DNA from: Eubacteriales bacterium
GTDB lineage: Bacteria > Bacillota > Clostridia > Oscillospirales > QAKW01
DNA: 61,262 nt
Assembly (NCBI GenBank): GCA_045648705.1
Contig: JAZROO010000024.1
Span: forward strand, 1 to 61,262
Reading direction: 5' to 3'
The position numbers were made by a program, and so were the translations under genes. Under the pieces are notes generated by a model. It worked only from the letters and a program-made list of their open reading frames with translations, did not search any database and was not told the DNA's origin. Positions 308-47,500 of this stretch are shown piece after piece (position 1 is the stretch's first letter; every line of letters begins with the position of its first letter).

Positions 308-2377
308 ATGAGTAAAACGGACAAAAAATACGAGGCGCTATTTACGCCTTGGAAAATCGGTAACGTTGAAATCAAAAACAGAATTGTAATGTGTCCTATG
401 GGCGGCACTTCGCTTTTTGGTTGGTTTGAACTTACCGGATGTCACTTTGACAAAGAAGCGGCAAAACTTTTCCTTGAGAGAGCTAACAACAATGTTGGAC
501 TTATCATTCCCGGAATAGCGCCTTTGCGCGACACTTTCTTTGGAAAATGGCTTTGGCAGAACGAAAAGATGTTCAAGGATCTCAAAGAGTTTATGGACGA
601 GATTCACAAGACGGGCGCAAAACTGTTTATTCAGCTTACCGCAGGCATGGGGCGTTCTTGGGCAATTACTGAGCTTGTGGCACCCTTACATAAAAACAAA
701 ATTACTCGTGCAATAGTAAAACCGATTATTGATACCTCGCATGAATTGGCTTCTCCTTCTCCACAAAAATCTCGTTGGGCGCACGATATTGAGTGTCCTG
801 AAATGACGGTAGAGCAAATTCACGAAATCATTGAAGCTTTTGCTAAGACCGCAAAGCTTTGTAAAGAAGCAGGCGTTGATGGAGTGGAAGTTCATGCTGT
901 TCACGAAGGATATCTTCTTGACCAATTTGCAATTGAATTTTTCAATAAGCGTACAGACGAATACGGCGGCAACTTTGAAAACCGTTACCGCTTTGCAGCA
1001 GAGGTTGTAAAAGCGATTAAAGAAGCTTGTGGTGAGGATTACCCTGTATCACTTCGTTATTCTGTTGAATCCAAGATGAAGGGCTTTTGTGAAGGTGCTA
1101 TGCCCGGAGAGGAATATACTGAAGTTGGTCGTAATATGGAAGAATCCGAAAAAGCGGCTAAATATTTACAAGATGTCGGTTACGATATGCTTAATGCCGA
1201 TAACGGAACTTACGACTCTTGGTATTGGGCGCATCCGCCGATGTATATGCCCGAAAACTGCAACCTTGACGACGTAGCACATATTAAGGAATTTGTGGAT
1301 ATTCCTGTTGTATGCGCAGGCAGAATGGATGCTGAAGTTGGCGCTAAAGCTGTTGCTGACGGTAAAATCGACGCTGTCGGTGTTGCTCGTCAATTCCTTG
1401 TTGATCCCGAATGGATTACAAAGTTGATTGAAGATAGAATCCAGGATATCAAACCATGCATTTGCTGTCACAGTGCTTGCTTTAACTTCTCATCTTCAAA
1501 AGGACACGCCAATACACAAGATCTTACCGATACAATGGGACTTGCACGTTGTGCGCTTAATCCCGAAACAATGCAATCTAAAAAGTATCACATCGACCAA
1601 GCCAAGAAAAAGAAAAATATCGCTATTATTGGTGGCGGTATCGGCGGTATGGAAGCTGCCATCGTTTGTGCAAAACGCGGACATAGCGTAACTCTTTACG
1701 AAAAGAGCGATAAGCTTGGTGGTGTATTTATTGCAGCAGCAGCTCCTTCCTTCAAGGAAAAGGATAGAGATCTTATTGCATGGTATATTCGCGAACTTGC
1801 AAAATATCCCATTGATGTAAAATTAAACACCGAAATTAAAGACGTTAAGGCTATTAATGCTGATGAAATTATCGTAGCGACAGGCGCCAAGGCTAAAACA
1901 ATTCCTGTAAAGGGTGCTGAAACCGCTGTTGAAGCAGTTGACTATCTGCTTGGCAACAAGACCGTTGGTGAGAATGTTGTGGTTATTGGCGGCGGACTTA
2001 CAGGATGCGAAATTGCATACGATCTTTATTTGAATGGCAAAAAGCCCGTCATTGTGGAAATGCAGGATGACCTGATTACTACTCCCGGTATTTGCCTTGC
2101 CAATACAAGTTATTTACGTGATTTCTTTAAGACCAACAGTGTTCCTGTGCATCTTGAAACCTCACTTTGTGAGATAAACAGCGGAAGTGTAACCCTTAAA
2201 AACAAGGAGGGCAAAGTCTTTGCAGTAGATGCCGATTCGGTGATTTTGTCCGTAGGTTATGTTCCTGCACCGATTGTTTCAAAAGGAAGACATATTCACG
2301 TAATTGGTGATGCCGAAAAGGTAGGAAATCTCCGTAGCGTTATTTGGGGCGCTTGGGACATTTGTATGAAACTGTAA
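308..2377 (+). CDS. 2-enoate reductase-like flavoenzyme (Old Yellow Enzyme TIM barrel + 4Fe-4S + NAD/FAD Rossmann domains; EnoR/FldZ family)
   Basis: HAVHEGYLLDQF active-site segment, NxRTDEYGG, YDSWYWAHPPMY, CxxCxxxC...CALNP Fe-S motif, two GGG Rossmann motifs (IIGGGIGGME, VIGGGLTGCE). ATG at 308 follows GAAAGGA RBS (ORF track starts at TTG 290). Confidence 0.88.
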   Translation: MSKTDKKYEALFTPWKIGNVEIKNRIVMCPMGGTSLFGWFELTGCHFDKEAAKLFLERANNNVGLIIPGIAPLRDTFFGKWLWQNEKMFKDLKEFMDEIHKTGAKLFIQLTAGMGRSWAITELVAPLHKNKITRAIVKPIIDTSHELASPSPQKSRWAHDIECPEMTVEQIHEIIEAFAKTAKLCKEAGVDGVEVHAVHEGYLLDQFAIEFFNKRTDEYGGNFENRYRFAAEVVKAIKEACGEDYPVSLRYSVESKMKGFCEGAMPGEEYTEVGRNMEESEKAAKYLQDVGYDMLNADNGTYDSWYWAHPPMYMPENCNLDDVAHIKEFVDIPVVCAGRMDAEVGAKAVADGKIDAVGVARQFLVDPEWITKLIEDRIQDIKPCICCHSACFNFSSSKGHANTQDLTDTMGLARCALNPETMQSKKYHIDQAKKKKNIAIIGGGIGGMEAAIVCAKRGHSVTLYEKSDKLGGVFIAAAAPSFKEKDRDLIAWYIRELAKYPIDVKLNTEIKDVKAINADEIIVATGAKAKTIPVKGAETAVEAVDYLLGNKTVGENVVVIGGGLTGCEIAYDLYLNGKKPVIVEMQDDLITTPGICLANTSYLRDFFKTNSVPVHLETSLCEINSGSVTLKNKEGKVFAVDADSVILSVGYVPAPIVSKGRHIHVIGDAEKVGNLRSVIWGAWDICMKL

Positions 2378-2389
2378 GGAGAAGATAAT

Positions 2390-3664
2390 ATGATTTTAAC
2401 GAAAGAACAGCAAGCCATCCTCGATGGTGAAAAGGGTGAAACTCTTGCAAAGGTTATGAAAACCTTAGTAATGTACGGTGATGCTTTTGAGGCTGAGAAG
2501 CTCGTGCCTATCACATCAAAATACAACCACCTTGTGACTTCCTTTGGTCTCAAGGTAATGTCGCCCGTTTATGACTTGATGCAACAACTTCTTGACGCTG
2601 ATGTTGCATCGGAGCAAAAATTCTCGGTTGACCCTCGTCCGCTTGACAAAAACGTTCCTGCAAACCTCTTACAGAACCTTGTGTTCAATAAGTTTATGTA
2701 TACTAAGCAGGATTTTTACGAAGATCAACTCAGCAAACTTGGTCTTATGGATAAAAATGCCTTTACCTGCACCTGCTATATGGATGAGGTAGGAAATAAG
2801 CCGCAAAAGGGCGAAGTTCTTTCTTGGGCAGAATCCAGTGCAGTTGTTTATGCAAATTCTGTGCTTGGTGCAAGATGTAACCGCAATTCCGGTATTATTG
2901 ATATTATGGGCTCTATTGTAGGTTTTGTTCCGTATTTTGGACTTCTGACCGATGAAGGAAGAAAAGCAACTTGGGTTGTAAAGGTACAAACCACCAAGAA
3001 ACCTGAGGCACAGCTTCTTGGCTCTGCTATCGGCATGAAAGTAATGGAGGATGTTCCATACGTAGTAGGTCTTGATCAGTGGATTGGAACTGACCTGAAC
3101 GACTCCGCTTGTGCTTATTTAAAGGATTTCGGTGCGGCAACCGCATCCAACGGTGCAGTTGGTCTTTACCATATTGCAAATCTCACTCCCGAGGCAGTAG
3201 AACTTGGAGAAAATCTTATTGCAGAGGGAGCAAAGGAATATATCATTGATGATGCTGAACTTGAAAGAGTGAAGAACAACTATCCTGTTATCTGGAAGAA
3301 TCCTGATGCAAAGCCAAAACTTTGTTTTGTTGGTTGCCCTCATCTTTCATTGGAACAACTTAAAAGTTGGACTCTCAAGCTTGAAGAAGAACTTAAAAAG
3401 AACGGCAAAAAGAAGGTTACTATCAATACCGTATTTACCGCCGCTCCCGGTGTGCTTGAAGCATTTGAAAAGACCGAATATGCAGCAAGACTTAAGGAAA
3501 CAGGGGTTATTACTTCTTATATTTGTCCGCTTATGTATATGAACAATCCTCTTTGCAAGAAGATGCCTGTTATCACGTCATCTAATAAATTGCGTACTTA
3601 TACGAGTGCCAGATATTATACCGATGCTGAAATTCTTAAAATCATTACGGGAGGTAAAAACTAA
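2390..3664 (+). CDS. Aconitase X catalytic (large) subunit, DUF521 family Fe-S dehydratase
   Basis: N-terminus MILTKEQQAILDGEKG, WAESSAVVYANSVLGARCNR, GCPH and further Cys in CTCY and ICPLM; AAGGAG RBS; 12 bp after the reductase stop. Confidence 0.85.
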   Translation: MILTKEQQAILDGEKGETLAKVMKTLVMYGDAFEAEKLVPITSKYNHLVTSFGLKVMSPVYDLMQQLLDADVASEQKFSVDPRPLDKNVPANLLQNLVFNKFMYTKQDFYEDQLSKLGLMDKNAFTCTCYMDEVGNKPQKGEVLSWAESSAVVYANSVLGARCNRNSGIIDIMGSIVGFVPYFGLLTDEGRKATWVVKVQTTKKPEAQLLGSAIGMKVMEDVPYVVGLDQWIGTDLNDSACAYLKDFGAATASNGAVGLYHIANLTPEAVELGENLIAEGAKEYIIDDAELERVKNNYPVIWKNPDAKPKLCFVGCPHLSLEQLKSWTLKLEEELKKNGKKKVTINTVFTAAPGVLEAFEKTEYAARLKETGVITSYICPLMYMNNPLCKKMPVITSSNKLRTYTSARYYTDAEILKIITGGKN

Positions 3665-4107
3665 TGAAACAGTTTAAAGGAAGAGTTGTTACTCCCGGCG
3701 AGGTAACTGCAGAGGCGGTTGTAACAAAAGAAGGATTTAACACCTTGGCTTCACTTCAAATGGCACTGCAGTTTGGTGATAAAGAAGTAAAATGCGGTGA
3801 TCAAAGTAATAAGGAACTTTACGGAAAATCACTTATAAACAAAGCTCTCTGCTTGCCTCAGACCATTGGCTCTACTACAGGTGGTCTTGTGCTTTATTGT
3901 GCCTGTTCAATGCAGAAGAATCCTGCTTGTATGCTTTTTGCCAATCACATCGACTCACTTGCGGCCGCAGGCGCTGTTCTTGCTGATGTTTGGGTAGATA
4001 AAGTTACTATGCCCGTTATCGACTCACTCGGAGATGAATTTCTCAACTATGTAAAGGACGGAATGAAGATTACCGTAAAAGCAGACGGAATCGTTGAAGT
4101 TGAATAA
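3664..4107 (+). CDS. Aconitase X swivel (small) subunit, DUF126 family
   Basis: GRVVTPG start, KALCLPQTIGSTTGG (GST motif), C-terminal G..ITV..DG.V; TAATG stop/start overlap with the large subunit. Confidence 0.85.
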   Translation: MKQFKGRVVTPGEVTAEAVVTKEGFNTLASLQMALQFGDKEVKCGDQSNKELYGKSLINKALCLPQTIGSTTGGLVLYCACSMQKNPACMLFANHIDSLAAAGAVLADVWVDKVTMPVIDSLGDEFLNYVKDGMKITVKADGIVEVE

Positions 4108-4141
4108 GTATTATTAAAGCGAAAACGATCCTACCGAATAG

Positions 4142-4196
4142 AAGATACCATTGATATCCCGACTCAAGTACTCGGAAAATCAATGGTATCTTTTTT
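4142..4196 (+). terminator. Rho-independent terminator closing the reductase-AcnX operon
   Basis: AAGATACCATTGAT ... ATCAATGGTATCTT 14-bp stem ending in a T run. Confidence 0.75.
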
Positions 4197-4278
4197 GTGA
4201 GTCTTTCCATAAAAGTTGCATTTGCTTTTAAATAGAGAGATTTATTAAGAAATAAAAGCATAATATTAATATTTAATC

Positions 4279-4307: not shown

Positions 4308-4417
4308 ATTTATGAATGTTCTGTTGAGTTATTTTATGGTATTTCATTCACCAACATTTCAGGTGAATTTGCAGAGGATAAATGACAGAAAATAATCAAA
4401 AAGGAAGGAGTGAAAAC

Positions 4418-6379
4418 GTGGCAGACAAGTTTATTTTACATTCAAATTACAAGCCAACCGGGGATCAGCCTGAGGCTATCGAGCGTTTGGTTGATGGATT
4501 TGAAAAAGGAACTAAAAAACAAACACTGCTTGGTGTTACCGGCTCCGGCAAAACGTTTACTATGGCAAATGTGATTGCGCGTTTAAATAAGCCGACGTTG
4601 GTTTTGGCGCACAACAAAACATTGGCAGCACAGCTTTGCAGTGAACTTAAAGAATTCTTTCCTGAAAATGCTGTAGAGTATTTTGTATCCTATTATGATT
4701 ATTATCAGCCTGAGGCTTATATTCCGTCGTCAGACACATATATAGAAAAAGATAGCGCCATAAACGAGGAAATTGATAAACTGCGCCACAGTGCCACTTT
4801 TTCGCTTTTTGAAAGACCGGATACGATTATTGTTTCATCCGTTTCTTGCATCTACAGTTTAGGTGATCCACAGGATTACAAGGAAATGGTTATTTCATTG
4901 CGCCCGGGTATGCAGATAGACCGCGATGATTTGATTATGCGTTTGGTCAGCAATCATTATGAGAGAAATGATATTGATTTTTCTCGAAATAAATTTCGTG
5001 TCAAGGGAGAAGTGGTTGATGTTTTTCCTGCTGCTTCTTCCGATAAAGTGATTCGCATTGAGTTTTTTGATGATGAAATTGATCATATTTATGAGATTGA
5101 TTCTCTTACCGGTCAAGTTCTTGCGGTTTTGTCGCACGTTGCCATATATCCCGCTACGCACTATATAACAACCGATGACAAGATGGAAACTGCAATTGCA
5201 GAGATCGAAAGAGAATTAAAAGAACGTGTTGCTTATTTTAATGAAAACAACTATTTGCTTGAGGCGCAACGAATTGAGCAGAGAACAAAATACGATATAG
5301 AAATGTTGCGCGAAATCGGCTTTTGTAACGGAATTGAAAACTACAGTCGTATTATGAGTGGCAGAGCGCCCGGAAGTACGCCATACACTTTATTTGATTT
5401 CTTTCCGGATGATTTTCTTTTTATTATCGATGAGTCGCACGTTACTTTGCCTCAGGTTCGCGGAATGTACGGGGGAGACCGCTCCAGAAAAGAAAGCTTG
5501 GTACGTTACGGTTTTAGATTGCCTTCAGCCTTAGATAATCGTCCTCTAAACTTTGATGAATTCTTGGGAAAACTAGATAAAACTTTATTTGTAAGCGCTA
5601 CGCCCGGTCAGTTTGAAATCGATCAGAGTGCAGACGTTATAGAGCAGGTGATCCGTCCTACCGGTCTGCTTGATCCCGAGGTGATCGTTAAGCCGAGTGA
5701 GGGTCAAATTGAAGACTTACTTTCTGAAATAAACATTCGTTCTGCCAAAAAAGAGAGAGTTTTAGTTACCACACTTACCAAGAGAATGGCGGAGGATTTA
5801 ACCTCGTTTTTAGAAACCAACGGCGTTAAAGTGCGGTATATGCATCATGACATAGACACGATGCAACGAATGGAAATTATTCGAGATTTAAGACTTGGCT
5901 TGTTTGACGTTTTGGTTGGAATTAATTTGCTCAGAGAAGGTCTTGATATTCCTGAGGTTTCTTTGGTGGCGATACTGGATGCGGACAAAGAGGGATTTTT
6001 GCGCAGTGAAACTTCTTTGATACAGACAATCGGCAGAGCTGCTCGAAATTCTGAGGGTCAAGTTATCATGTATGCTGATCAAGTTACACCATCTATGGAA
6101 CGCGCTATTGTTGAAACCAATCGTCGTCGCGCCAAGCAGCAAGAGTATAACTTACAAAACGGAATTGTACCTAAAACGATTATTAAAGATGTCCGTGAAA
6201 TACTTGAAATTTCCAGTAAAAAGGATATCAGAAATATTCAAACCAAGGATATAAAAGCCAAGCAAAAGGATAAATTGATTAAAGAACTTACCAAACAAAT
6301 GCAACAAGCTTCAGCAATGCTTGAGTTTGAGTATGCTGCGGTTTTACGTGATAAAATCAAAGAACTGCGTCAGGAATGA
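4418..6379 (+). CDS. uvrB: Excinuclease ABC subunit B
   Basis: [56 protein letters not shown]-terminal UVR helix. GTG start at 4418 after AGGAG. Confidence 0.98.
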
Positions 6380-6391
6380 GGAAATTGGTTT

Positions 6392-9208
6392 ATGGAAAAA
6401 TATATTACCATTAAGGGCGCCAAAGAGAATAATTTAAAAAATATTGATTTGACCATACCCAGAGACAAATTGATTGTATTTACCGGTTTGTCAGGATCGG
6501 GTAAATCTTCTTTGGCGTTTGACACGATTTATGCCGAGGGTCAAAGACGATATGTAGAGAGTTTATCGTCATATGCAAGAATGTTTTTGGGTCAGATGGA
6601 CAAGCCTGAGGTGCAGTCAATTGACGGTCTTTCACCTGCGATTTCTATTGACCAAAAAACCACCTCAAAAAACCCCAGATCAACTGTTGGAACGGTAACG
6701 GAAATATATGATTACCTTCGTTTGCTTTATGCGAGAATCGGCAGACCGCATTGTCCTGTTTGCGGCAAGGAGATCACGCAACAAACGGTGGATCAAATTG
6801 TTGAGCAAGTCCTTGCATTGCCTGAAAACACTAAGATTCACATATTGGCACCTGTAATCCGAAAACGTAAGGGTGAGCACAAAAAACTGCTGGAAGAAGC
6901 GCTGAAAAGTGGCTATATGCGCGTGCGCATTGACGGCATTTTATATGAACTTTCCGAAGAAATATCACTTGAGAAAAACACAAAACACACTATCGAAATA
7001 GTAGTGGATCGTTTGGTGATTCGCGAAGGGATCCGAAGCAGATTGGCAGATTCTGTCGAAACTGCGCTTCACAATGCCCACGGACTTGTGGTCATCAGTC
7101 AAAGTGGCGGAGAAGATCAGGTTTTTTCGCAAAACTACGCTTGTCCTGAGCACGGAACAAGTATTGAGGAACTATCTCCTCGTATGTTTTCGTTTAACAA
7201 TCCCTACGGTGCTTGTTCAAATTGCGATGGTATAGGATATACTATGTCCATTGATCCGGAAGCGTTGATTTCTGATGGATCGTTGTCACTCAATGAAGGC
7301 GCTATCAAAGCAAACGGTTGGCACTCGGGTTATGGCGATTCTATTGCAAATCTTTATTTTGCTTCGCTTTCTAAAATGTATAATTTTTCCTTAAATACAC
7401 CGTACAATGAGTTGTCCGATGAGGTTAAGGACATTTTGTTATACGGAACAGGGGATAGAGAAGTTCCTATTGGTCGCAGTGGAAAATATGTTAGGCATGC
7501 GCCTTTTGAAGGAATTATCAAAAATTTAGAGCGACGCTATCATGAAACAAATAGCGAGTTTATGCGCCATCAGATTGAATCAATTATGGTGGAAAAGAAG
7601 TGTCCCGTATGCAATGGTGCACGACTCAAAAAAGAGATTCTGACAGTTACGGTTGGCGATAAAAATATCCAGCAAATTTGTGAGATGTCTATTAAAAAAA
7701 TCCTTGATTTTTTTGACACTCTTCAGCTGAATGACCGAGAGGAAATGATTGCGCATGAAGTAATTAAAGAAATTAAGGTTCGACTGAATTTCCTTGTAAA
7801 TGTTGGGTTGACCTATTTGACGCTTTCTCGTTCTGCGGGAACTTTGTCGGGTGGCGAAAGTCAAAGAATTAGACTCGCCACACAAATTGGCTCTTCTTTG
7901 ATGGGTGTATTATATATTCTGGATGAACCGAGTATCGGACTGCATCAACGTGACAATGATAAACTTTTGGCAACGTTGCAAAAGCTGAGAGATGTAGGTA
8001 ATACTTTGATTGTTGTTGAACACGATGAAGATACGATGCGCGCCGCCGACTATATTGTTGATATTGGTCCTGGGGCCGGTATTCATGGCGGTGAAGTAGT
8101 GGCAAGCGGAACACCGCAGGAAATTATGGAGAATAAAAATTCTCTCACCGGTTTGTATTTAAGCGGTCAAAAGAAGATTGACATACCTCAGCGCAGAAGA
8201 CAGGGGAATGGTGATTTCCTGCAAGTTATCGGTGCGGCTGAAAACAACCTTAAAAACGTCGATGTTTCTATTCCTTTGGGCACATTTTCTTGTGTTACCG
8301 GTGTGAGCGGATCAGGTAAATCATCGCTTGTAAATAATGTTATCTATCAGATTTTGGCGCGTGATTTGAATCATTCCAAAACATTGCCCGGGAAATGTAA
8401 AGAAATACGCGGACTTGAGCATTTGGACAAGGTGATTAATATTGATCAATCTCCTATTGGAAGAACACCGCGTTCCAATCCTGCAACTTACACCTCGGTG
8501 TTTACGGATATTCGCGATCTTTTTGCGCAAACACAAGCGGCAAAAGCTCGTGGATACGGCCCCGGCAGATTTTCGTTTAATGTTCGCGGCGGTCGCTGTG
8601 AGGCTTGTCAAGGCGATGGTATTATTAAAATCGAGATGCACTTTTTGTCCGACGTATACGTGCCGTGTGAGGTTTGTAAAGGGGCACGTTATAACAAGGA
8701 AACGTTGGAGGTTAAGTACAAGGGAAAGTCTATTGCCGATGTTCTGAATATGACGGTAGAAGAGGGAATGAACTTTTTTGAAAGTATCCCAAGAATATAT
8801 AGAAAGTTAAAAACGATGTATGATGTTGGCTTGTCTTATATTAAGATCGGACAATCTTCTACAACGTTGTCTGGTGGAGAGGCGCAACGAGTAAAACTTG
8901 CGACTGAACTTTCCAAAAGACCGACCGGGAAGACGATTTATATTTTAGATGAACCGACAACGGGACTTCATACTGCCGACGTGCAAAAACTGATTGAAGT
9001 GTTGCAGAAATTGGTTGATGGAGGCAATACTGTTTTGGTTATTGAGCACAATTTGGATGTAATTAAAACAGCGGATTATATTATTGATTTAGGGCCTGAG
9101 GGCGGAGATGCGGGAGGAAAAGTTTTGGTTAGCGGTACTCCCGAAAAAGTCGCCGCTTGCAAAAAAAGTTTTACTGGTGAATATCTCAAAAAAGTTGGAA
9201 TTAAGTAA
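6392..9208 (+). CDS. uvrA: Excinuclease ABC subunit A
   Basis: Two ABC ATPase cassettes ([43 protein letters not shown]) and Zn-finger Cys pairs. Confidence 0.98.
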
Positions 9209-9248
9209 TAAAAATATGCCGATAGCGTTTGCTATCGGCATATTTTTA
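9209..9248. terminator. Bidirectional terminator between uvrA and the convergent cwlJ operon
   Basis: TAAAAATATGCCGATAGC-gttt-GCTATCGGCATATTTTTA, a perfect 18-bp inverted repeat with A/T tails. Confidence 0.9.
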
Positions 9249-9575
9249 TCTTCTGTTTGAGGGTGTGGTTCTTGCCATTGTGGGTCGACTGGGGCGTCTT
9301 CCTTGGTTTACATAGGTAACAAACTTGATGGCGTACAAGTCGCAAATGGTATATTGATCATTTTTTTCGTCATACAATACGACGTAGCTGATGCCAACTT
9401 CATACAATCTGCCTTCGCGATAAATCAGGTTATTTGTGCCGATTAAAAATTCTATAATAACATATGCTCCGATGTTGTCTTGCAATATGCGTTGCATTGA
9501 ACCGTTAAAGGCTTGGGAATTAATTTCATCAGTGGCTGAGCCGTTGCTTGACGGCATGGTGTTCATATTGTCCAT
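9246..9575 (-). CDS. Small protein, probable remote GerQ-like spore coat protein
   Basis: GGAG RBS directly after the cwlJ stop. Core ILQDNIG...EGRLYEVGISYVVLYD...DLYAIKFVTY resembles, by my recall, the GerQ core ILRLNRG...RGVIEAAGRDHIIISD...YLDYITF. The ORF is solid; the family call is inference. Confidence 0.55.
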   Translation of the reverse strand: MDNMNTMPSSNGSATDEINSQAFNGSMQRILQDNIGAYVIIEFLIGTNNLIYREGRLYEVGISYVVLYDEKNDQYTICDLYAIKFVTYVNQGRRPSRPTMARTTPSNRR

Positions 9576-9587
9576 ATAGTTAGCTCC

Positions 9588-10028
9588 TTATGTTGAATAA
9601 TATTCTGAGGTTGGATTATAAAAGCAGTGTTCACCGATCCTAGTGTAAAAATATCCTACAGTACTTGGAAAATTTGGGCGACAATTTACCGAAAACGGAT
9701 TGTAAAACCAAAGAGCTTGCTCAAGTCCGGTTAATCGATTTCCTGCAATTGCCCAGTCTGCAATATCAAAATGGACACCTGTTGGATTCATGTTATAGAT
9801 ATTCTGCGGATTATACTGACCATTTTCGATTTCACTGGCGCAGACAAACTGCCCGGGTTGATAAATGATTTTTCTGATGCTTCCTTGCCCGACTCGTTGA
9901 TATTCACCACCGGGCGCTTGAACGCGATTCATTACAACAGAGGCAACTGCCCGCATGCCGTTGTCTCCTTCGCCGCCTGCTTCGCATTCAATGAGTCTTG
10001 CGAGAAGTTCTCTGTCTGAATATGCCAT
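9588..10028 (-). CDS. cwlJ: Spore cortex-lytic enzyme, CwlJ-type (Hydrolase_2/SleB family)
   Basis: LLARLIECEAGGEG (catalytic Glu), VASVVMNRV, IIYQPGQF, HCFYNPT; 146 aa with no signal peptide or PG-binding domain, as in CwlJ rather than SleB; AAAGGAGG RBS. Confidence 0.8.
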   Translation of the reverse strand: MAYSDRELLARLIECEAGGEGDNGMRAVASVVMNRVQAPGGEYQRVGQGSIRKIIYQPGQFVCASEIENGQYNPQNIYNMNPTGVHFDIADWAIAGNRLTGLEQALWFYNPFSVNCRPNFPSTVGYFYTRIGEHCFYNPTSEYYST

Positions 10029-10146: not shown

Positions 10147-11031
10147 ATGAAAATAAAAAGCATGACTGGATATGGCAAAGCACAAAAGGCTATAAACGGT
10201 AAAATTATCAACATTGAAATCAAATCGGTAAACCATCGCTATTTTGATTTTAACTGCCATAATGCAAAAAGTTTTTCCTTCATGGAGGATAAACTTAAGA
10301 AAACCGTCAACAGTCATATATCCAGAGGCAAAATTGATTTATATCTTTATGTTGAGTTTGTTGAGAGTGCAGCAAGTGAGGTGCTTATCAACAAGCCGCT
10401 TCTTGAAAGCTATATCAAAGCATTCAATGAGTTAAGTGAAAATTATAATTTAAGAAACATCTCGTCGGTAACAGACGTGTTTCGTATTCCTGAGGTAGTG
10501 AGCGTTCAGTGCGCGCAACTGGATGAGGAACTTCTGAGTGAAGAGATTTTGTCGGTTTTGGAAGAAACGCTTGAAACATATGATGCTATGCGTTTGGCTG
10601 AGGGACAAAGAATAGCGCAGGATTGCCTGGACAAGTTGGCAACGATTGAGCAAAATGTTCTGAAAATTGAGGCACTTGTACCGCAATCACTGAATAACTA
10701 CAAGCAACGCCTGGAAAACAAAATCAAAGAAGTTCTTGAAAATCGTGAAATCGATGAGCAGAGGGTGTTGACGGAAGTTGCAATTTTCTCTGACAAAATT
10801 GCAGTTGACGAGGAAATGGTCAGACTGAAAAGTCATATTGCTCAGTTTAGAGATTTCTTAAATCATTCTGAGCAACCTGTTGGTAAAAAACTTGATTTCC
10901 TGATTCAAGAAATGAATCGAGAAATTAATACAACCGGCTCCAAGTGCAATCATATTGAGATTACTTCTACAGTTCTTGAAGTAAAATCATTGATTGAAAA
11001 AATCAGAGAGCAAATTCAAAATATGGAGTAA
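10147..11031 (+). CDS. yloC: YicC/YloC family endoribonuclease
   Basis: MTGYG start, [56 protein letters not shown]. Confidence 0.95.
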
Positions 11032-11035
11032 GCCT

Positions 11036-11284
11036 ATGAAGTTGATTCAAATCGGATTTGGGAATTACGTTTCGGATGCACGTATTATTTCGGTTGTCAG
11101 TCCTGATTCCGCACCAATCAAACGTATTATTCAAGACGCAAGAGACAGTGCGCTTTTAGTCGATGCAACTTATGGAAGAAAAACTCACTCAGTGTTGGTG
11201 ATGGATAGTGGACATGTTGTTCTCTCCGCCTTATCTCCGGAAACAATTGAGGGAAGGGTGAATGAGGTGATTGAAAATGAATAG
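11036..11284 (+). CDS. remA: DUF370 / RemA family regulator
   Basis: IGFGNYV...[15 protein letters not shown]...[21 protein letters not shown]; start placed at ATG 11036. Confidence 0.93.
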
Positions 11285-11840
11285 AGGCTTATTGCTGGTT
11301 GTTTCCGGCCCATCGGGAGTTGGAAAAGGTACCGTTCTTGCTGAGCTGATGAAAGAAAACGATAATATTCATTATTCGGTTAGCGCCACAACACGTCAAC
11401 CACGTGAAGGTGAAGTTGACGGAGTGAATTACTTTTTTATATCTAAAGAACAATTTGAAAAAAATATTTCTGAAAACAAAATGCTGGAGTACGCTTGCTA
11501 TTGCGGTAATTATTACGGCACGCCTTTGGCGGCAGTAGAGCAAATGCGTGATGAAGGCAAGGATGTTTTGCTCGAAATCGAAGCGCAGGGTGCTATGCAG
11601 GTGCTGGATAAATGTTCGGATGCAATTTCAATTTTTATAGCGCCGCCTTCGCTTGAAGAATTGCGCAGACGATTAACCGATCGCGGTACGGAGAGTGCTC
11701 AGGTTATAGAAGAGAGAATGCGCAGAGCTAATGAGGAATTTTCGTTGTCGGAACGTTATCAGTACACCGTAGTGAATGATTGCGTTGAAACGGCAAAAGA
11801 TAAGATTAGTCAAATAATATTTAAACATAAAAACATTTAG
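11277..11840 (+). CDS. gmk: Guanylate kinase
   Basis: [42 protein letters not shown]. Confidence 0.97.
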
Positions 11841-39702: not shown

Positions 39703-40446
39703 ATGAATTGGTTTTTCAGTAAAAAGGAAAAAGTAACAATTGATAAAAATAACTTGCCAAAACATGTTGGCATTATTATGGATGGAAATGGTCGATGGGC
39801 AACTAAAAGAGGGTTGCCCCGTACCGCCGGTCATGCCGCCGGCATTAAAACTTTTAAAAATATTTCTATCTATGCCAAGGAACTCGGGTTGGAACAAGTT
39901 ACGTTTTATGCCTTTTCTACTGAAAACTGGAAAAGACCCAAAGATGAAATTGACAGAATTATGCTCTTGCTTGACGAATATGTTGAAGAGGGCCTTAGGG
40001 AATATGAAAAGCGGCAAGTAAGAGTTCGCTTCATTGGTGATTTATCACCGATAGCGCCGTCGATGGTTGAAAAAATTCGCAAATTGGAACAACTGACAGA
40101 ACAGTATGCACCAAAAACGCTAAACATTGCTTTAAATTATGGCGGCCGTAAGGAAATTGCTGATGGAGTAAAAAAAATTGCCACCTTGGTTAAAGACGGC
40201 AAAATTGAACCGAGTCAGATTGATGAAAATCTCATATCGGAATTTTTGTATTTTGAAGATCTTTCTGAATGCGATTTAATTATTCGTCCCAGTGGTGAAT
40301 ATCGATTGTCAAATTTTTTACTATGGCAAAGTGCATATAGTGAATTTTGGTTTGATGATATTTTATGGCCTGATTTTAAGGCTGCTGATCTTGACCGAGC
40401 AATTTTTTATTATCAAAAAAGACAAAGGAGATTTGGCGCAATATGA
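39703..40446 (+). CDS. uppS: Undecaprenyl diphosphate synthase
   Basis: HVGIIMDGNGRWA, FSTENWKRP, NYGGR, RPSGEYRLSNFLLWQ. Confidence 0.97.
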   Translation: MNWFFSKKEKVTIDKNNLPKHVGIIMDGNGRWATKRGLPRTAGHAAGIKTFKNISIYAKELGLEQVTFYAFSTENWKRPKDEIDRIMLLLDEYVEEGLREYEKRQVRVRFIGDLSPIAPSMVEKIRKLEQLTEQYAPKTLNIALNYGGRKEIADGVKKIATLVKDGKIEPSQIDENLISEFLYFEDLSECDLIIRPSGEYRLSNFLLWQSAYSEFWFDDILWPDFKAADLDRAIFYYQKRQRRFGAI

Positions 40447-41297
40447 AACAAAACATTTTGACAAGATTTTATACCAGTTTGATTATATTTGCCGTTTTTG
40501 TTCTCATATTTGTTACCTCATTTGTATCCCCGATATTTGAAATTACAATTTCATTACTTGCATGTTTTTGTATTTGGGAAGCAATTCGCGGAACCGGATA
40601 TGCAGAAAAGAAAATATTTATTGTGCCAAGTTTGTTATTTGGGGCATTGAATCCTTTGATGTTTGCGTTTAAGCCATATATTATCCCTAACCGCAGTGCG
40701 TGGTATGGTATTATTATACTTTCGTTTTTATATTGCATGGTTTCATTTTTGCTTATGATGTGCAATATGAAAACATTAAAATTTAATAATACGACAGCAA
40801 TTATGTTTCTCTCATTAACCATTTCCTCTTTTATATCTTGTATCATATACATTCGTCGCTTGGAGCATGGCTTTATTTATATGATTCTTGCGATTGTTTG
40901 TTGTGCGTGGATAACAGATATTTTTGCCTATTTGGTTGGAATTATGGTAGGTAAACATAGATTTGCACCGCTGGTAAGTCCCAAGAAAACAATAGAAGGT
41001 TCATTGGGCGGCGCTATATTCTGTATTGGATTTTTCTGCTTATTTATTTTCATTTATCAGTTGATACAAGACGTTCGCGTAAATTGGACTTTGGCAATTT
41101 TATATTCGTTTATTTGCACTATTGTCGGTCAGATCGGCGATTTGTCTTTTTCCATGATCAAACGTTCATATGGTATTAAGGATTTTGGTAGTATTTTGCC
41201 CGGTCACGGCGGTGTTCTTGACCGTTTGGATTCTTTAATATTTATTGCACCTACATTTTATTTGTTGCTGAGCATTCAGCCGATTATATTGCCATGA
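40443..41297 (+). CDS. cdsA: Phosphatidate cytidylyltransferase
   Basis: TDIFAY, SPKKTIEG, KDFGSILPGHGGVLDRLDS. Confidence 0.96.
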   Translation: MKQNILTRFYTSLIIFAVFVLIFVTSFVSPIFEITISLLACFCIWEAIRGTGYAEKKIFIVPSLLFGALNPLMFAFKPYIIPNRSAWYGIIILSFLYCMVSFLLMMCNMKTLKFNNTTAIMFLSLTISSFISCIIYIRRLEHGFIYMILAIVCCAWITDIFAYLVGIMVGKHRFAPLVSPKKTIEGSLGGAIFCIGFFCLFIFIYQLIQDVRVNWTLAILYSFICTIVGQIGDLSFSMIKRSYGIKDFGSILPGHGGVLDRLDSLIFIAPTFYLLLSIQPIILP

Positions 41298-42466
41298 AAA
41301 CAATTTCAATTTTAGGAAGCACAGGTTCAATCGGAACACAAGCGCTTGCGGTTATTCGTCGTCTCGGATATTCCGTAGGCGCTTTAAGTGCTTATAAAAA
41401 CATAGATTTACTTGAAAAACAGGTACGAGAATTTCGTCCCAAATTAGTTTCGGTTTATTCTGAAGAATTAGCCAAGCAGCTAAAAGAGCGTATTTCGGAT
41501 ACGAATACAATTGTTGCTGCGGGGCAGGAAGGTAACTGCGCTGTTGCGACGTTGCCGGAGGCTGATATTGTTTTAACATCAATGGTTGGAATGATTGGCC
41601 TTGTACCGACTTTGGCAGCCATTGAAGCAGGTAAGGACATTGCACTTGCTAACAAAGAAACTTTGGTTTGCGCAGGGCAACTGATAATGAAACGTGCTGC
41701 TGAAAAAGGCTGCCGCATTTTGCCCGTTGATAGTGAACATAGCGCAATTTTTCAATGTTTGCAGCAAAGTGAGCATAATAAACTTGAAAGCATTTTGCTC
41801 ACAGCATCCGGCGGACCGTTTAGAAATTATACCAAAGAACGCCTTTATTCTGTCACCAAAGAGCAAGCCCTTAAACATCCAAACTGGTCAATGGGGGCAA
41901 AAATAACCGTGGACAGTGCCACGATGATGAATAAAGGTCTTGAGGTAATTGAAGCTAAATGGTTATTTGATGTTTCGCCGGAGCAAATTAAGGTCGTTGT
42001 TCATCCTGAAAGCATCGTTCATTCAATGGTTGAATTTGAGGACCATGCAGTTTTAGCTCAGCTTGGTGTGCCGAGTATGGAAATACCCATTCAGTATGCT
42101 TTTACTTATCCCAAAAGAACCCCGACGCCAAGTGATCAACTGGGATTAAATATTTTTGGGAAAACACTTCATTTTGAAGATGTTGATACAAACGTTTTTC
42201 GTTGTTTGGGTGTTTGCAGGGAAGCGCTTGTTAAGGGTGGACTGTTTCCTGCAGCAGTTAATGCTGCAAATGAGCAGGCGGTGTCATTATTTTTGGAAGA
42301 CAAAATTGCTTTTTGGCAGATTAGTGAAATCGTTGATGAATGTTTTCATACATTTTCAAACGATACGCAAGAATATACTTTACAAGATGTTATTCAAACA
42401 GACGCTTGGGCACGTGATTTTGTAAAGTGCAAATTCGGTCGGGAGGAATTATGCAAACATTCATAA
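41294..42466 (+). CDS. dxr: 1-deoxy-D-xylulose 5-phosphate reductoisomerase
   Basis: GSTGSIG, LANKETLV, PVDSEH, HPNWSMG, NKGLEVIEA. Confidence 0.97.
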   Translation: MKTISILGSTGSIGTQALAVIRRLGYSVGALSAYKNIDLLEKQVREFRPKLVSVYSEELAKQLKERISDTNTIVAAGQEGNCAVATLPEADIVLTSMVGMIGLVPTLAAIEAGKDIALANKETLVCAGQLIMKRAAEKGCRILPVDSEHSAIFQCLQQSEHNKLESILLTASGGPFRNYTKERLYSVTKEQALKHPNWSMGAKITVDSATMMNKGLEVIEAKWLFDVSPEQIKVVVHPESIVHSMVEFEDHAVLAQLGVPSMEIPIQYAFTYPKRTPTPSDQLGLNIFGKTLHFEDVDTNVFRCLGVCREALVKGGLFPAAVNAANEQAVSLFLEDKIAFWQISEIVDECFHTFSNDTQEYTLQDVIQTDAWARDFVKCKFGREELCKHS

Positions 42467-43500
42467 CCATTGTAATTACCGTTCTCTTATTTGGTGTTTT
42501 GATTTTAGTTCATGAATTGGGCCATTTTTTGACAGCACGTTGGGCTAAGGTTAAAATCAATGAATTTGCAATCGGAATGGGACCTACGTTGTTTAAAAAG
42601 CAAGGTAAAGAAACGCTTTATTCTTTACGTGCTTTTCCGATTGGCGGCTTTGTTCAAATGGATGGTGAAGATGGTAACGGTGTCGACCCGAATTCGTTTA
42701 ATAATAAGCCAAAGTGGAAACGTTTTATTATTTTGGTGGCCGGTGCATTTAACAACCTAGTGTTTGGCTTTTTGCTTAGTTGTATTGTTTATGGTTTGCT
42801 TGCAGGGTGGACGATGTTTCCAACAACCATAATTGCAGAATTCCATGAAGATGCTGTTTCTTCCCAAGATGGTTTGCAAGTAAATGATCAAATTCACTCG
42901 ATAGATGGTTACCGTATTTACACGTATAATGATCTTGGTTATGCTTGTACCAAAAACGGCACCGAACCGCTTTCTATTGAGGTAATACGCAATGGCAAAA
43001 AAACTTTAGTTGAAAATGTTTCTTTTAAGGTAGACTCAACAAAATATACAGGGGATTATTTTTCTCTTGATTTTGCAGTATACGGGTCTAAAAAGACGAT
43101 TATCTCTACTTTGAAATATTCTTTTAACAGCACAATCTCTCTTTCACGCTCCATCTATTCATTCTTTGGATCACTGTTTACCGGTCAAGCCAACATTAAA
43201 AACGTGAGTGGTCCTATTGGAACAACACAAATGATTGGTGAGGCAGTTGCTGATAATTTTTCAATTGATTTTGCCTCGTTGTTTTTAATGATGTCAATGA
43301 TTTCAATCAATTTAGGTGTCGTTAATTTGTTGCCGTTTCCTGCTTTGGATGGCGGCAGGATTACAGTGCTCTTATATGAAACGATTTTTAGAAAAAAGAT
43401 GAGTGAAAAAATAGAGGTTGCAATCAATTTAATTGGTTTTGGCATTTTGATGATTTTGATGCTGCTTATATGTGTTAAGGACGTTATTCAATTATTTTAG
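42451..43500 (+). CDS. rseP: Site-2 intramembrane zinc protease RseP/RasP
   Basis: HELGH, PIGGFVQM, PDZ segment, NLLPFPALDGG; ATG 42451 after GGGAGG. Confidence 0.95.
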   Translation: MQTFITIVITVLLFGVLILVHELGHFLTARWAKVKINEFAIGMGPTLFKKQGKETLYSLRAFPIGGFVQMDGEDGNGVDPNSFNNKPKWKRFIILVAGAFNNLVFGFLLSCIVYGLLAGWTMFPTTIIAEFHEDAVSSQDGLQVNDQIHSIDGYRIYTYNDLGYACTKNGTEPLSIEVIRNGKKTLVENVSFKVDSTKYTGDYFSLDFAVYGSKKTIISTLKYSFNSTISLSRSIYSFFGSLFTGQANIKNVSGPIGTTQMIGEAVADNFSIDFASLFLMMSMISINLGVVNLLPFPALDGGRITVLLYETIFRKKMSEKIEVAINLIGFGILMILMLLICVKDVIQLF

Positions 43501-43509
43501 GAGTAACAA

Positions 43510-44544
43510 ATGGATAAAATACAGATTGGTAATTTGCAAATAGGAAAGAATTGTCCGATTTTAATACAATCGATGCTTTCAACTCCAAACGGCGATGTTC
43601 AAGCTGCTCTTGAACAAGCTAAGGCATTAGAATATGCAGGGTGTCACGTTTTGCGTTTGGCAGTGCCTGATGAACAGGCATTACCTGTTATAGAAGCGTT
43701 GAAAAAAAATACAAAAATGCCAATCGTAGCTGATATTCATTTTGATTATAAACTTGCTTTGGCATCGGTTGACGCCGGTGTTGATAAAATCAGGATTAAT
43801 CCCGGAAACATTGGTTCTAATGCGGCAATTGAAGCTGTAGCACTTAAGTGCAAGGAAAACAACATACCGATTCGTATTGGTGTTAACGGTGGCTCTCTTG
43901 AAAAAAATATTTTGAAAAAATATGGTGCACCTACCGCTGAAGCCTTGGTGGAAAGCGCATTATATCACGCTGCTTTGCTGGAGCAATTTGATTTTCATAA
44001 TATCGTTGTTTCGATGAAGTCGTCTGATGTGGCAAATATGGTTCGAGCATATCGTATGTTGGCTCAAGAAAAGGATTATTTGCTGCATATTGGCGTTACG
44101 GAAGCAGGACCCGGCAAACGCGGTTTAGTAAAAAATGCTATTGGTATCGGGGCGCTTTTGTTAGATGGGATCGGCAACACAATTCGTGTTTCGCTCACTG
44201 ATGATCCCATTGAGGAAATTTATGCTGCAAAGCAAATTTTGGGTAGCCTTGGGCTTCTTGCCAACGAGCCGCAACTAATTTCTTGTCCCACATGCGGACG
44301 AACAAAAATTGATTTAATTTCTCTTGCCAATGAGGTTGAACAATTACTTAAAAATGTTCATAAGCCTATAAAAGTTGCAGTAATGGGCTGTGTTGTAAAT
44401 GGCCCGGGCGAAGCAAGAGAGGCGGATATCGGAGTGGCCGGCGGTGACGGTGTTGGACTGATCTTTAAGCATGGTGAGCCACTTTGTAAAGTACCGTATG
44501 ATAAAATTTTAGAGCAATTAAAATGCGAGATAGATAAACTATAA
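43510..44544 (+). CDS. ispG: HMBPP synthase (MEP pathway)
   Basis: IQSM, ADIHFD, RINPGN, HIGVTEAG, CPTCGRT, GCVVNGPGEA. Confidence 0.97.
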   Translation: MDKIQIGNLQIGKNCPILIQSMLSTPNGDVQAALEQAKALEYAGCHVLRLAVPDEQALPVIEALKKNTKMPIVADIHFDYKLALASVDAGVDKIRINPGNIGSNAAIEAVALKCKENNIPIRIGVNGGSLEKNILKKYGAPTAEALVESALYHAALLEQFDFHNIVVSMKSSDVANMVRAYRMLAQEKDYLLHIGVTEAGPGKRGLVKNAIGIGALLLDGIGNTIRVSLTDDPIEEIYAAKQILGSLGLLANEPQLISCPTCGRTKIDLISLANEVEQLLKNVHKPIKVAVMGCVVNGPGEAREADIGVAGGDGVGLIFKHGEPLCKVPYDKILEQLKCEIDKL

Positions 44545-44554
44545 CGGAGGAAAC

Positions 44555-47500
44555 ATGGCGGATAGACTTTTCTTTGAACTATTTAATAAACTGAATAAGC
44601 AAGACTATCCGGAGGCTTTCCTTTCTGCAAAAGTCTGTGATGTTAAAATTCAACGCGAAAAGCGTATTTTAATAGGCGATTTGGTTTTGGATGAGTTTGT
44701 TCCGTATGAGATTATTGAAAACGTATGCGGTGCAATTAGTCGTATTTATCAATTATCTCAGCTCTCTTTATCTACACACTATGTGGGAGTCGAGTTTACT
44801 TTAGATAAATGGAACAGTGTGGTTGGATTTATTTGTAATTCCAATCGCAATTGTAATGGTATTTTTAAAGACAGTCATATCGAATTGAACGAAAATGAAT
44901 TGATTGTTCATCTTGTTCATGGCGGACTTTCTATTATAAAAATGCAAAAGCTTGATGAAGAAATTATAAAATTGATTTCTTCTTGGTTTGGAAAAAAATA
45001 TCAGATTTCGTTTGTCGGAGTGACCGAGGTAACTGAAGAACAAAATGAACTTGAAAACATTCCGTTGCCCGAACCGCCCCCACCGATGCAAACTCCTGCC
45101 CCCAGAAAAAGTGTTGAAGTGCCTACACAGGCGCCCGTCAGAAGAAGGGCAGAGCCTATTGATCCCGCTATGACTTTTTCTTTGAAAGATTTACCTTTTG
45201 ATCTTTCGGATGCGGCGATCTTTAAAGGTAAGAAAATCGGAAATACGTTTGTCAGATTGTCAAACCTTAACGATGATAGCGGTCGTGTCAGTGTGGTTGG
45301 TGAGATATTTTACTTTGATTCAAGACCGACGTGGGATAAGACCAATGTCAGAGCGACTGTATATATTACCGACCAAACAGGCTCTTTTGTTATTAAATTC
45401 ATGGATAGTGCCGCGAATTTTGAGCAGTATGCTGATTCTTTGGGCGTTGGCAAATGCATTGCTGTCAGCGGTGAAATTATTTATGACAAATATGAAGAAG
45501 ATATTGTTTTACGTGCTAATGCTATAGCTTCTGTTAAGAAAAAGAAACTTGTGGATCCTTGTGAGAAAAAGCGCGTAGAACTTCATTTACATACTAAAAT
45601 GTCTTCAATGGACGCCACTAATGATATTGGTGACTTTGTTAAACGCGCGGCAGATTGGGGACACAAAGCAATTGCCATAACAGACCATGGTAATGTTCAG
45701 GCATTTCCGCAGGCTGCTGCTGCAGGTGAAAAATACGGCGTTAAAATTGTGTATGGTATGGAAGGTTATCTTATCAATGATTTGACCTCAGCCATCGCTT
45801 TTGGTGACCACGAACAAACGTTTGAGGACACTTTTGTTGTGTTTGATATTGAGACGACAGGGCTTTCAGCTGCAGTTAACAGAGTAACAGAAATTGGCGC
45901 AGTTAAAATTGTTAACGGTCAAGTATGCGAAGAGTTTCAAACTTTTGTAAATCCTGAATGCGAGATTCCGCAAAATATCACTGAACTGACGGGTATTACA
46001 GGTGATATGGTTGCTGATGCTCCGACGTTTGAACAGGCATTTGATGCCTTTTGCGAATTTTGCGGTAAGGACGTCGTACTTGTTGCGCATAATGCAAGTT
46101 TTGATGTCGGATTTATGCGTGCAGGAGCAGAACGCATCGGAAAACAATTTGATTATACATATTTGGATACCGTTCCAATGTGTCGCTATGTTTTCCCAGA
46201 TATGCGTTCAGTGAAGTTGGATCTGGTGGCAAAACGTATCCATTTACCTGCATTTAATCATCACCGAGCGGTAGATGATGCAAAAACGCTTGGTGCCATT
46301 TTGCTGCACATTTTTGACTTTTTGAAGCAAAAAGATAAGATGAATACACTTGCTGATATTCGTAATCAAATCAATAAAGTCGATTATAAAAGCAAAAACA
46401 CTAAATATAACCACGTAATCATATTGGTTAAAAATAAGATCGGTCTTAAAAATCTTTATAAGCTTGTAACCAAGTCAAGTATAGAACATTTTCATAAAAG
46501 ACCGTTGATATTTAAAAGCGAACTTGCTTCTTTAAGAGAAGGATTAATAATTGGCAGCGCCTGTGAAGCAGGCGAGGTTTTCCGCGCTGTTTTGAGTGGC
46601 GCCACAACCGAGCAACTCAATGAATTAGCTGATTTTTATGATTTTCTTGAGGTCCAACCTTTAGGAAACAACCAGTATATGTTGCGTAATGGAATGGCTT
46701 CCAGTGTTGAAACTTTGCGCGATTTCAATCGCAAGATTATTGCTCTTGGAGACCATCTCGGTAAGCCTGTTTGCGCAACTTGTGACGCACACTTTTTGAA
46801 TAAAGATGACGAGGTGTTTCGTCGTATTCTTCAAGCAGGTCAGGGCTATCCTGATGCTGATGAGCAACCGCCTTTGTATTTTAGAAATACCAAGGAAATG
46901 CTTGAGGAATTTGATTATTTGGATGCACAAAAAGCCGAGGAAATCGTTATTACCAATCCCAATATGATTGCGGATCTTTGTGAAGAGATTATTCCAATTC
47001 CCACAGGTATGTATCCTCCTATTATTGAGGGTTGCGAGGATGAACTTAGAGATATTGCATATCAAAACGCCAAAAGAATATATGGCGATCCTATACCCGA
47101 AAAGGTTTTGACCCGTATGGAGCGTGAACTTGATGCTATTATCGGAAACGGGTTTGCGGTTATGTATATGATATCGCAAAAATTGGTTAAGAAATCCAAT
47201 GACGATGGCTATTTTGTTGGTTCTCGTGGTTCGGTTGGCTCGTCTTTTGCGGCTAACATTGTAGGTATATCAGAAGTTAATCCTTTGCCACCGCACTATC
47301 TTTGCCCTGAATGCAAGTATATGGAGTGGTTTGACGATGGATCGGTAGGTTCAGGATTTGACTTGCCGTCTAAGCAATGCCCCAAGTGCGGTACTCAACT
47401 TTCTTGTGACGGTCATGATATTCCTTTTGAAACATTTCTTGGCTTTAAGGGAGATAAAGTTCCTGATATTGACCTTAATTTTTCGGGTGTATATCAACCT

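Follow-up and report, generated by a model that had tools for sequence, protein, structure and literature searches.

Contig JAZROO010000024.1 of an Eubacteriales bacterium (assembly GCA_045648705.1) opens with a compact operon that joins an enoate-reductase-like flavoenzyme to a two-subunit aconitase X (AcnX). We analyzed this operon within the whole stretch of 61,262 nucleotides, hereafter called the window. Its three genes lie on the forward strand. The first (308–2377) encodes a reductase of 689 amino acids, hereafter type A, in an open reading frame (ORF) that begins at ATG308, and homologues align from residue 1 of this start. A ribosome-binding site, GAAAGGAA, can be read at 293–300 on the same strand, 8 nt 5' of the ATG. 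A 12-nt gap containing GGAG separates the reductase gene from that of the AcnX large, catalytic subunit (2390–3664; 424 amino acids; PF04412), which in turn overlaps the gene of the small, swivel subunit (3664–4107; 147 amino acids; PF01989) at position 3664 in a TAATG. The operon is closed by an intrinsic terminator on the + strand (4140–4196), a hairpin followed by UUUUUU. Although a consensus terminator scan gave no call at the operon end, folding of 4125–4200 yields a 16-bp stem with a U-run at -25 kcal/mol (z = -5.2), and none of 200 shuffled sequences folded as well. ORFs and folding thus bear out the initial annotation, which had described three coupled genes with this gap, ribosome-binding site and overlap ahead of a single terminator.

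The first gene product is a predicted member of the 2-enoate reductase/2,4-dienoyl-CoA reductase family. Enzymes of this family carry out NADH-dependent reduction of carbon–carbon double bonds beside a carboxyl or carbonyl group, and FldZ of C. sporogenes reduces aromatic enoates. The window protein matches Oxidored_FMN (PF00724, E 3e-56) and Pyr_redox_2 (PF07992, E 8e-30), with an FMN barrel of the old yellow enzyme (OYE) type, a CxxCxxxC...C [4Fe-4S] motif and an FAD/NAD(P)H domain of two dinucleotide folds. Its best solved relatives are 2-naphthoyl-CoA reductase NCR (6QKG, E 5e-57) and E. coli FadH (1PS9, E 5e-51). Among curated models it scores 363 bits against BilR-long (cut-off 750) and 348 against BaiCD (cut-off 825), less than half of either threshold; because no curated equivalog cut-off is reached, we treat it as a family member lacking an assigned orthologue. 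A large homologue search with the reductase retrieved relatives 84–90% identical and two proteins labelled only "FAD-dependent oxidoreductase". The motifs HAVHEGY, GTYDSWYWAHPPMY and CICCHSAC are kept across the reductase clade down to ~40% identity. GTYDSWYWxHPPxY is likewise common to the clade and takes the altered form GCYDNWWxPHPP in a second lineage. Both halves of the signature that had first suggested an enoate reductase, HAVHEGY and YDSWYWxHPPMY, can be read in the protein and run through the clade, the second in the form YDSWYWxHPPxY.

The other two genes appear to encode a catalytically complete AcnX. The large subunit matches PF04412 with 315.5 bits (cut-off 31.5; E 6e-94) and the small subunit matches the swivel family PF01989 with 46.1 bits (cut-off 27; E 5e-12). 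Their best structural matches are chains A (E 3e-38) and B (E 2e-7) of the same entry, T. kodakarensis TkAcnX (7CNR); a search of the PDB with a C-terminal fragment of AcnX gave only noise and a weak match to the type I enzyme AtAcnX. Cys127, Cys316 and Cys379 of the large subunit align with the cluster ligands Cys110, Cys283 and Cys342 of TkAcnX, a correspondence that implies a [4Fe-4S] cluster. Residue mapping and alignment also place Glu148-Ser149-Ser150 and Lys400/Tyr404 in the large subunit. The small subunit keeps the G-S-T-T-G-G loop, whose serine, the counterpart of Ser62 of the TkAcnX small subunit and Ser70 of AtAcnX, is put forward as the general base; the roles of these residues follow Watanabe et al. 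(2021, PMC8184944). By these alignments, the full catalytic set of the family is predicted to be present.

Differences lie among the residues that touch the variable portion of the substrate. The large subunit carries the motif N-H47-L-V49-T50-S51-F52-G53, and the stretch from His47 to Gly53 is invariant in its subfamily. The phosphate-binding residues of TkAcnX, Gly48, Val49, Ser50, Asn53 and Asn79, are replaced by Thr50, Ser51, Phe52, Lys55 and Asp81, mostly invariant replacements, with Lys or Ser at the Asn53 position. Of the AtAcnX specificity residues, Asp203, which holds the ring nitrogen of the proline substrate (PMC8184944), corresponds to Val49, Ile206 to Phe52 and Trp35 to Leu; only Thr72 is shared. 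Val49 occupies the position of Ala47 in TkAcnX, and Phe52 that of Ser50. The subfamily has further invariant residues of its own, many of them aromatic: Trp195, Tyr224, Tyr284, Trp302, Trp327 and Phe359.

Phylogeny agrees with the residues. The tree placement proposed in the initial annotation sets the protein apart from the enzymes of types I and IIb, whose landmark residues it lacks. In maximum-likelihood trees the window AcnX falls within a clade of 46 rows (support 100/96). TkAcnX, AtAcnX and canonical Bacillota AcnX fall in the other major clade (supports 100/99 and 99), with the exact position of AtAcnX uncertain since it entered as a partial sequence on a long branch. The NCBIfam model for the dehydratase acting on cis-3-hydroxy-L-proline (NF051439) gives 138.6 bits against a cut-off of 700. 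Canonical Bacillota proteins are 23–32% identical to the window AcnX and score 440–516 bits on the Pfam model, as against 315. Clade, residues and scores place the window AcnX outside both characterized activities, the dehydration of mevalonate 5-phosphate and of cis-3-hydroxy-L-proline, as far as sequence can tell.

Two side observations concern the wider AcnX family. Canonical AcnX (loci L117–L123) occurs in ~5% of sampled Bacillota genomes with no OYE neighbor, and the tree puts it together with the type I fragment and the mevalonate-5-phosphate dehydratase of archaea. In a second case, residues 2–425 of the 603-residue relative P0138 (43% identity) match the whole large subunit and are followed by ~180 further C-terminal residues; if this extension is a fused swivel domain, it would give a large-then-small order, the reverse of type I.

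The pathways that the characterized AcnX enzymes serve are missing from the host. The window's genome (1.66 Mb in 113 contigs, 94.5% complete) has no HMG-CoA reductase and no gene of the proline-racemase family, and the window itself holds dxr and ispG. The host has no mevalonate pathway. These genome-wide absences agree with the earlier observation, made on the window alone, that hydroxyproline and mevalonate genes are lacking while dxr and ispG point to the methylerythritol phosphate route.

The pairing of AcnX with a reductase is widely conserved. Relatives of the large subunit occur in at least 597 species-level genomes (one genome per species), and we compared the gene contexts of the best 80 of these, 81–94% identical. 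These 80 come from metagenome-assembled genomes (MAGs) labelled Acutalibacteraceae, Oscillospiraceae, Lachnospiraceae, Anaeroplasmataceae and others; ruminant hindguts are their main source, and a few are from humans. A reductase gene lies directly upstream of AcnX in 77 of the 80, the exceptions including one locus cut by a contig end and locus L043, where a TAXI-type tripartite ATP-independent periplasmic (TRAP) transporter takes its place. The small subunit follows in 79, the remaining locus again being cut by a contig end. Cassette proteins are 67–97% identical across these loci. When the 965 ORFs of the 80 loci were clustered, just the three cassette genes proved conserved; the next real cluster, a MarR regulator, reached 12 loci, and the flanks were otherwise unrelated. 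None of the 80 loci had a hydroxyproline gene context (epimerase or pyrroline-2-carboxylate reductase).

A broader sample showed that the partnership survives replacement of the partner. Among 399 genomes drawn evenly across the class, for which we examined the 20-kb contexts of carriers, 28 (~7%) encode this AcnX type at 40–91% identity. Of the 23 carriers at 53% identity or more, nine have AcnX beside a type-A reductase and nine beside a second kind, type B, of 753–795 residues and only 29–32% identical to the window enzyme. Each of the other five has exactly one OYE gene, a type-A ortholog at 57–71% identity located elsewhere in the genome. Pairing with one or the other reductase type, in either gene order, extends over relatives of 53–77% identity. 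On the AcnX tree, proteins with a type-A partner are interspersed with those that have a type-B partner, which implies partner replacement. Phylum-level relatives at 38–58% identity are paired as well, in the order large subunit, small subunit, reductase. AcnX thus accompanies OYE-type reductases across hundreds of species, with two reductase lineages and in both gene orders, a positive answer to the check on conservation suggested in the initial annotation. Around distant relatives, and around the reductase in genomes that lack AcnX, lay unrelated housekeeping genes, for example those for polysaccharide synthesis, GH4, SufBD and argininosuccinate synthase. Our literature searches on AcnX with enoate reductase and related topics returned no paper describing the pairing.

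The pairing is conserved, withstands replacement of the partner and is one-sided, in that nine genomes of the class sample have the reductase and no AcnX; such a pattern would be expected if an upstream enzyme fed a downstream consumer. We therefore favor, with moderate confidence, a self-contained and CoA-independent module that first dehydrates and then reduces, taking a 3-hydroxy acid through a 2-enoate to the saturated acid. In this scheme AcnX, a [4Fe-4S] hydro-lyase, would bind the carboxylate of a 3-hydroxy monocarboxylic acid; the alkoxide of the small-subunit serine would take the C2 proton, and the free cluster iron would expel the C3 hydroxyl to leave a 2-enoate. The reductase would then pass electrons from NAD(P)H through FAD and its cluster to FMN and saturate the C2=C3 bond. 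A dehydration near equilibrium would be pulled forward by the reduction, and the net effect would be the reductive removal of the beta-hydroxyl of a free acid. The order of the two reactions, the free-acid form of the substrate and the identity of that substrate are what we infer here.

The substrate is most likely a hydrophobic 3-hydroxy acid with an alkyl or aryl substituent, to judge from the specificity positions; candidates are 3-hydroxy fatty or short-chain acids and 3-hydroxy-3-arylpropionates, and polycarboxylates, imino acids and phosphate esters appear less likely. AcnX chemistry depends on a carboxylate group together with a hydrogen on C2 and a hydroxyl on C3 (PMC8184944). Aryl-lactates, which had been among the first candidates, are 2-hydroxy acids, and because the chemistry abstracts the C2 hydrogen with loss of the C3 hydroxyl, AcnX could not dehydrate them by this mechanism. 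The core of the original proposal, that AcnX acts on a hydroxy acid other than hydroxyproline or mevalonate phosphate and hands an enoate to the reductase, gains support from clade, residues and pairing. Its further claim that the module is an electron sink is weakened to one possible purpose, with salvage as the alternative in view of the fatty-acid-synthesis and DegV leads set out below.

Several observations weigh against this scheme. Gene neighborhood cannot fix the order or direction of reactions. The reductase also occurs independently of AcnX, in nine genomes of the class sample that carry type-A-like proteins at 53–67% identity, so the two enzymes could in principle serve different substrates. 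The residue mapping rests on alignments to TkAcnX and AtAcnX of 25–30% identity with indels near the key loop, where the alignments by phmmer and by MAFFT are a few positions apart. A sister AcnX clade at 40–44% identity (L139–L141, in genomes G439, G470 and G404) has no reductase neighbor, and the small subunit of L141, the sole member of this clade aligned, reads GFTKFGG for GSTTGG and so lacks the serine base; the sister clade may have a different or non-catalytic role. The gene contexts give conflicting hints as to substrate, with a proline racemase at L115, a methionine gamma-lyase at L150 and DegV at five loci. Finally, we found no RNA sequencing runs holding the locus, and the matches were three gut DNA metagenomes with ~6% of the sampled words.

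Among more specific or rival explanations, the one that fares best, itself unlikely, is fatty-acid salvage. It holds that the cassette is a thioester-independent counterpart of FabZ plus FabI, which in gut Clostridia devoid of type II fatty-acid synthesis (FASII) makes saturated fatty acids from exogenous 3-hydroxy or 2-enoic acids for FakA/FakB. The substrates would be 3-hydroxy fatty acids shed by Gram-negative neighbors; they abound in lipid A and in the lipids of Bacteroidota, among them glycine lipids and sphingolipids. We found neither a ketoacyl synthase of the FabF/FabB type (PF00109) nor FabA/FabZ (PF07977) in the window's 94.5%-complete genome, for which reason the organism appears unable to make fatty acids. 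More broadly, ketoacyl synthase is missing from 15 of the 23 carriers with AcnX at 53% identity or more, as against 137 of the 399 genomes of the class sample (Fisher p = 0.002), and from 14 of the 17 carriers of a type-A reductase at 60% identity or more (p = 5e-5). Since these tests ignore phylogeny and genome size, the association is a lead and not a result.

Gene neighbors add to the case for salvage. Genes of the DegV/FakB family adjoin the cassette in the same orientation at L002, L004, L014 and L017 and lie three genes away at L003; together with the loss of FASII, they suggest, as one reading, salvage of 3-hydroxy or 2-enoic fatty acids. DegV accounts for 4 of 244 ORFs near the cassette and 1 of 506 far from it (p = 0.04, for loci that are not independent), and it adjoins only ~6% of loci. 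An amidase of the C45/choloylglycine-hydrolase family (L028, L049), an aldehyde dehydrogenase and an iron-containing alcohol dehydrogenase also recur beside the cassette. The AcnX and reductase genes both persist in genomes of 0.9–1.1 Mb, the specificity positions are hydrophobic, and fatty acids would not require a transporter; we saw no conserved transporter across the 80 loci and the class-sample contexts. On the other side, eight AcnX carriers retain FASII, the MarR regulator has BilQ and not FabT as its best model match, and long-chain acids are not a known substrate of any AcnX or clostridial enoate reductase. To genomes with only the reductase, 2-enoic fatty acids would have to be supplied, and these are rare compounds. 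Literature on the salvage of 3-hydroxy fatty acids held nothing describing the AcnX–reductase pairing.

An aryl route is about as improbable. Here 3-hydroxy-3-arylpropionates derived from polyphenols or phenylalanine would become cinnamates and then arylpropionates, with the reduction serving as an NADH sink as it does with FldZ, an enzyme whose aromatic substrates fit the idea. The hosts live in plant-fed guts, and the pocket positions are hydrophobic or aromatic. The recurring aldehyde dehydrogenase has the benzaldehyde dehydrogenase MdlD as its best model match (436 bits against a cut-off of 550), and the regulators include MarR directly upstream in 12 of the 80 loci and TetR with type-B and related reductases. 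However, no aromatic-acid genes are conserved nearby, and retention in 0.9-Mb genomes would be odd for a peripheral polyphenol pathway.

Other features of the neighborhoods bear on the module as well. Regulators vary by lineage, being MarR, TetR or a sigma-54 enhancer-binding protein with a PAS domain. For the MarR regulator (L002:7391-7876 and 11 more loci), the curated model matched best is BilQ, the regulator of the bilirubin reductase operon, at 39 bits against a cut-off of 125; this resemblance parallels the partial similarity of the reductase to BilR. A PanE/ApbA-type reductase lies near the cassette in three loci. At L043 (86% identity) the solute receptor of a TAXI-family TRAP system, together with a fused permease (6870–9937), replaces the reductase directly upstream of AcnX, co-oriented with it across a 49-nt gap; this is the only transporter that we saw tied to the module.

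We consider a di- or tricarboxylate route distinctly less probable than the salvage or aryl route. It would run from citrate through aconitate to tricarballylate, a so far unassigned activity of the rumen, or from malate through fumarate to succinate. Such acids are the classic substrates of the aconitase superfamily, the hosts are ruminant gut organisms, and one locus, L043, has the TRAP carboxylate transporter; the papers that we searched name no aconitate reductase gene. Yet the positions facing the variable portion of the substrate hold Val, Phe, Leu and Thr and show no extra Arg or Lys, and polycarboxylates would need a transporter, of which none is conserved. The same hydrophobic positions, missing basic residue and missing transporter disfavor the citrate/aconitate candidate of the initial annotation. 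Plant acids, moreover, are scarce in the hindgut, from which most of the source MAGs derive. The window's genome and 8 of 13 carriers have no class I fumarase, but its presence in the other 5 of the 13 argues against AcnX as a general fumarase substitute.

An imino-acid route is very unlikely. A divergent AcnX of the cis-3-hydroxyproline type would supply pyrroline-2-carboxylate, which the flavoenzyme would reduce to proline; Delta2-pyrroline-2-carboxylate is formally a 2-enoate (PMC8184944). The idea draws on locus L115 (54% identity), where a Cys/Cys proline-racemase-family gene lies immediately downstream (10361–11368), an ornithine cyclodeaminase (OCD)/mu-crystallin gene (805–1896) 5 kb upstream, and a sigma-54/PAS activator accompanies the cassette. 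We rejected the racemase as a lead: it is missing from L149 and L150, the closest relatives of L115 (81–83% identity), which keep the activator–reductase–AcnX unit, and the window's genome has none. The equivalent of Asp203 is an invariant Val and that of Trp35 a Leu, the hydroxyproline dehydratase model reaches only 139 bits of the 700 needed, and the window AcnX and the type I enzyme lie in different clades.

Equally improbable is that co-regulation or co-inheritance is all that joins the two enzymes, their substrates being unrelated, or that AcnX is a hydratase working on some other enoate. The nine genomes with a reductase and no AcnX, the five in which the genes are unlinked and the AcnX clade at 40–44% identity with no reductase neighbor would fit it, but the partnership outlasts a swap to a reductase only ~30% identical, changes of gene order and unrelated flanks, and it includes translational coupling, a persistence hard to explain unless the enzymes share a pathway.

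Upstream of the operon, an open-ended ORF on the + strand (1–189) encodes the strongly hydrophobic last 62 residues of a gene cut short because the window begins at the contig end. It has no Pfam match and plausibly belongs to a membrane protein; none of the 80 related loci has a counterpart, which places it outside the conserved module. Downstream come uvrB and uvrA (4382–9208), and at L138, a relative of 53% identity, uvrB also adjoins the cassette, on the opposite strand, probably by coincidence. The cassette has a GC content of 42.1%, as against 38.8 ± 1.3% for the window, and the same GC content at third codon positions (GC3) as uvrA and uvrB. We see no clear foreign signature that would speak for horizontal transfer of the cassette. 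Farther along, positions 39703–48892 hold a standard Firmicutes block of uppS, a cdsA-like gene, dxr, an M50 protease gene (rseP-like) and ispG, followed by a 1445-residue ORF that is probably polC. Pfam backs the calls of uppS, dxr, the protease and ispG.

Our analysis links a subclass of AcnX, a family with just two activities assigned so far, to the family of the enoate reductases. At least 597 species-level genomes carry the module, as do ~7% of the sampled Clostridia species, mostly from herbivore guts and some from humans, and it probably marks a common and so far undescribed gut transformation, the CoA-free reductive removal of the beta-hydroxyl from free acids. Once its substrate is identified, gut metabolic maps would gain a reaction, and either a redox sink or a route of lipid salvage in fatty-acid auxotrophs could be explained. 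Biocatalysis has drawn on clostridial enoate reductases since the 1970s, and to our knowledge the physiological role of these enzymes is still unsettled; were the salvage reading true, it would give one to them and to this subclass of AcnX. The two enzymes also make a potential compact deoxygenation cassette for biocatalysis.

The proposed module parallels several known systems. Its AcnX fits the description of the bacterial two-subunit subclasses IIc–IIf, which lack the landmark residues and are functionally unassigned (Watanabe et al. 2021, PMC8184944). The window protein likewise has neither landmark set, and it has a reductase partner, whereas that paper names none for these subclasses. 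The type IIb enzymes TkAcnX (7CNR/7CNS) and ApAcnX of A. pernix share with it the separate large and swivel subunits, the three cysteine ligands, the E-S-S and K...Y residues and the serine base. They differ in the loop (A47-G-V-S50...N53 in TkAcnX, V-T-S-F-G..K/S in the window), in Asn79 where the window has Asp81, in clade, and in their partner, a UbiD-type decarboxylase instead of an ene-reductase. With AtAcnX, the type I enzyme that dehydrates cis-3-hydroxy-L-proline, the window enzyme shares a fold family and, if our proposal holds, beta-elimination on a 3-hydroxy acid; the type I product, too, is formally a 2-enoate that is subsequently reduced, the same logic as in the window module. 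The third cluster ligand separates the two, being Cys510 in AtAcnX and the TkAcnX-type Cys316 in the window.

The reductase shares its barrel, its cluster motif CxxCxxxC..C and its FAD/NAD(P)H domain with EnoR of C. tyrobutyricum and M. thermoacetica, FldZ of C. sporogenes, FadH, NCR, BaiCD/BaiH and BilR. What sets it apart is its genetic tie to an AcnX dehydratase, which our literature searches found for none of these enzymes. As a pathway, the module would follow the dehydrate-then-reduce logic of the FldBC and HadBC branches with their reductases and of FabZ/FabI in FASII. Those enzymes act on thioesters of CoA or of acyl carrier protein (ACP), whereas the window locus has no linked CoA-transferase, ligase or ACP gene. 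The Fld and Had systems, moreover, use radical chemistry on 2-hydroxy acids, in place of which the window module would employ an aconitase-type enzyme for free 3-hydroxy carboxylates.

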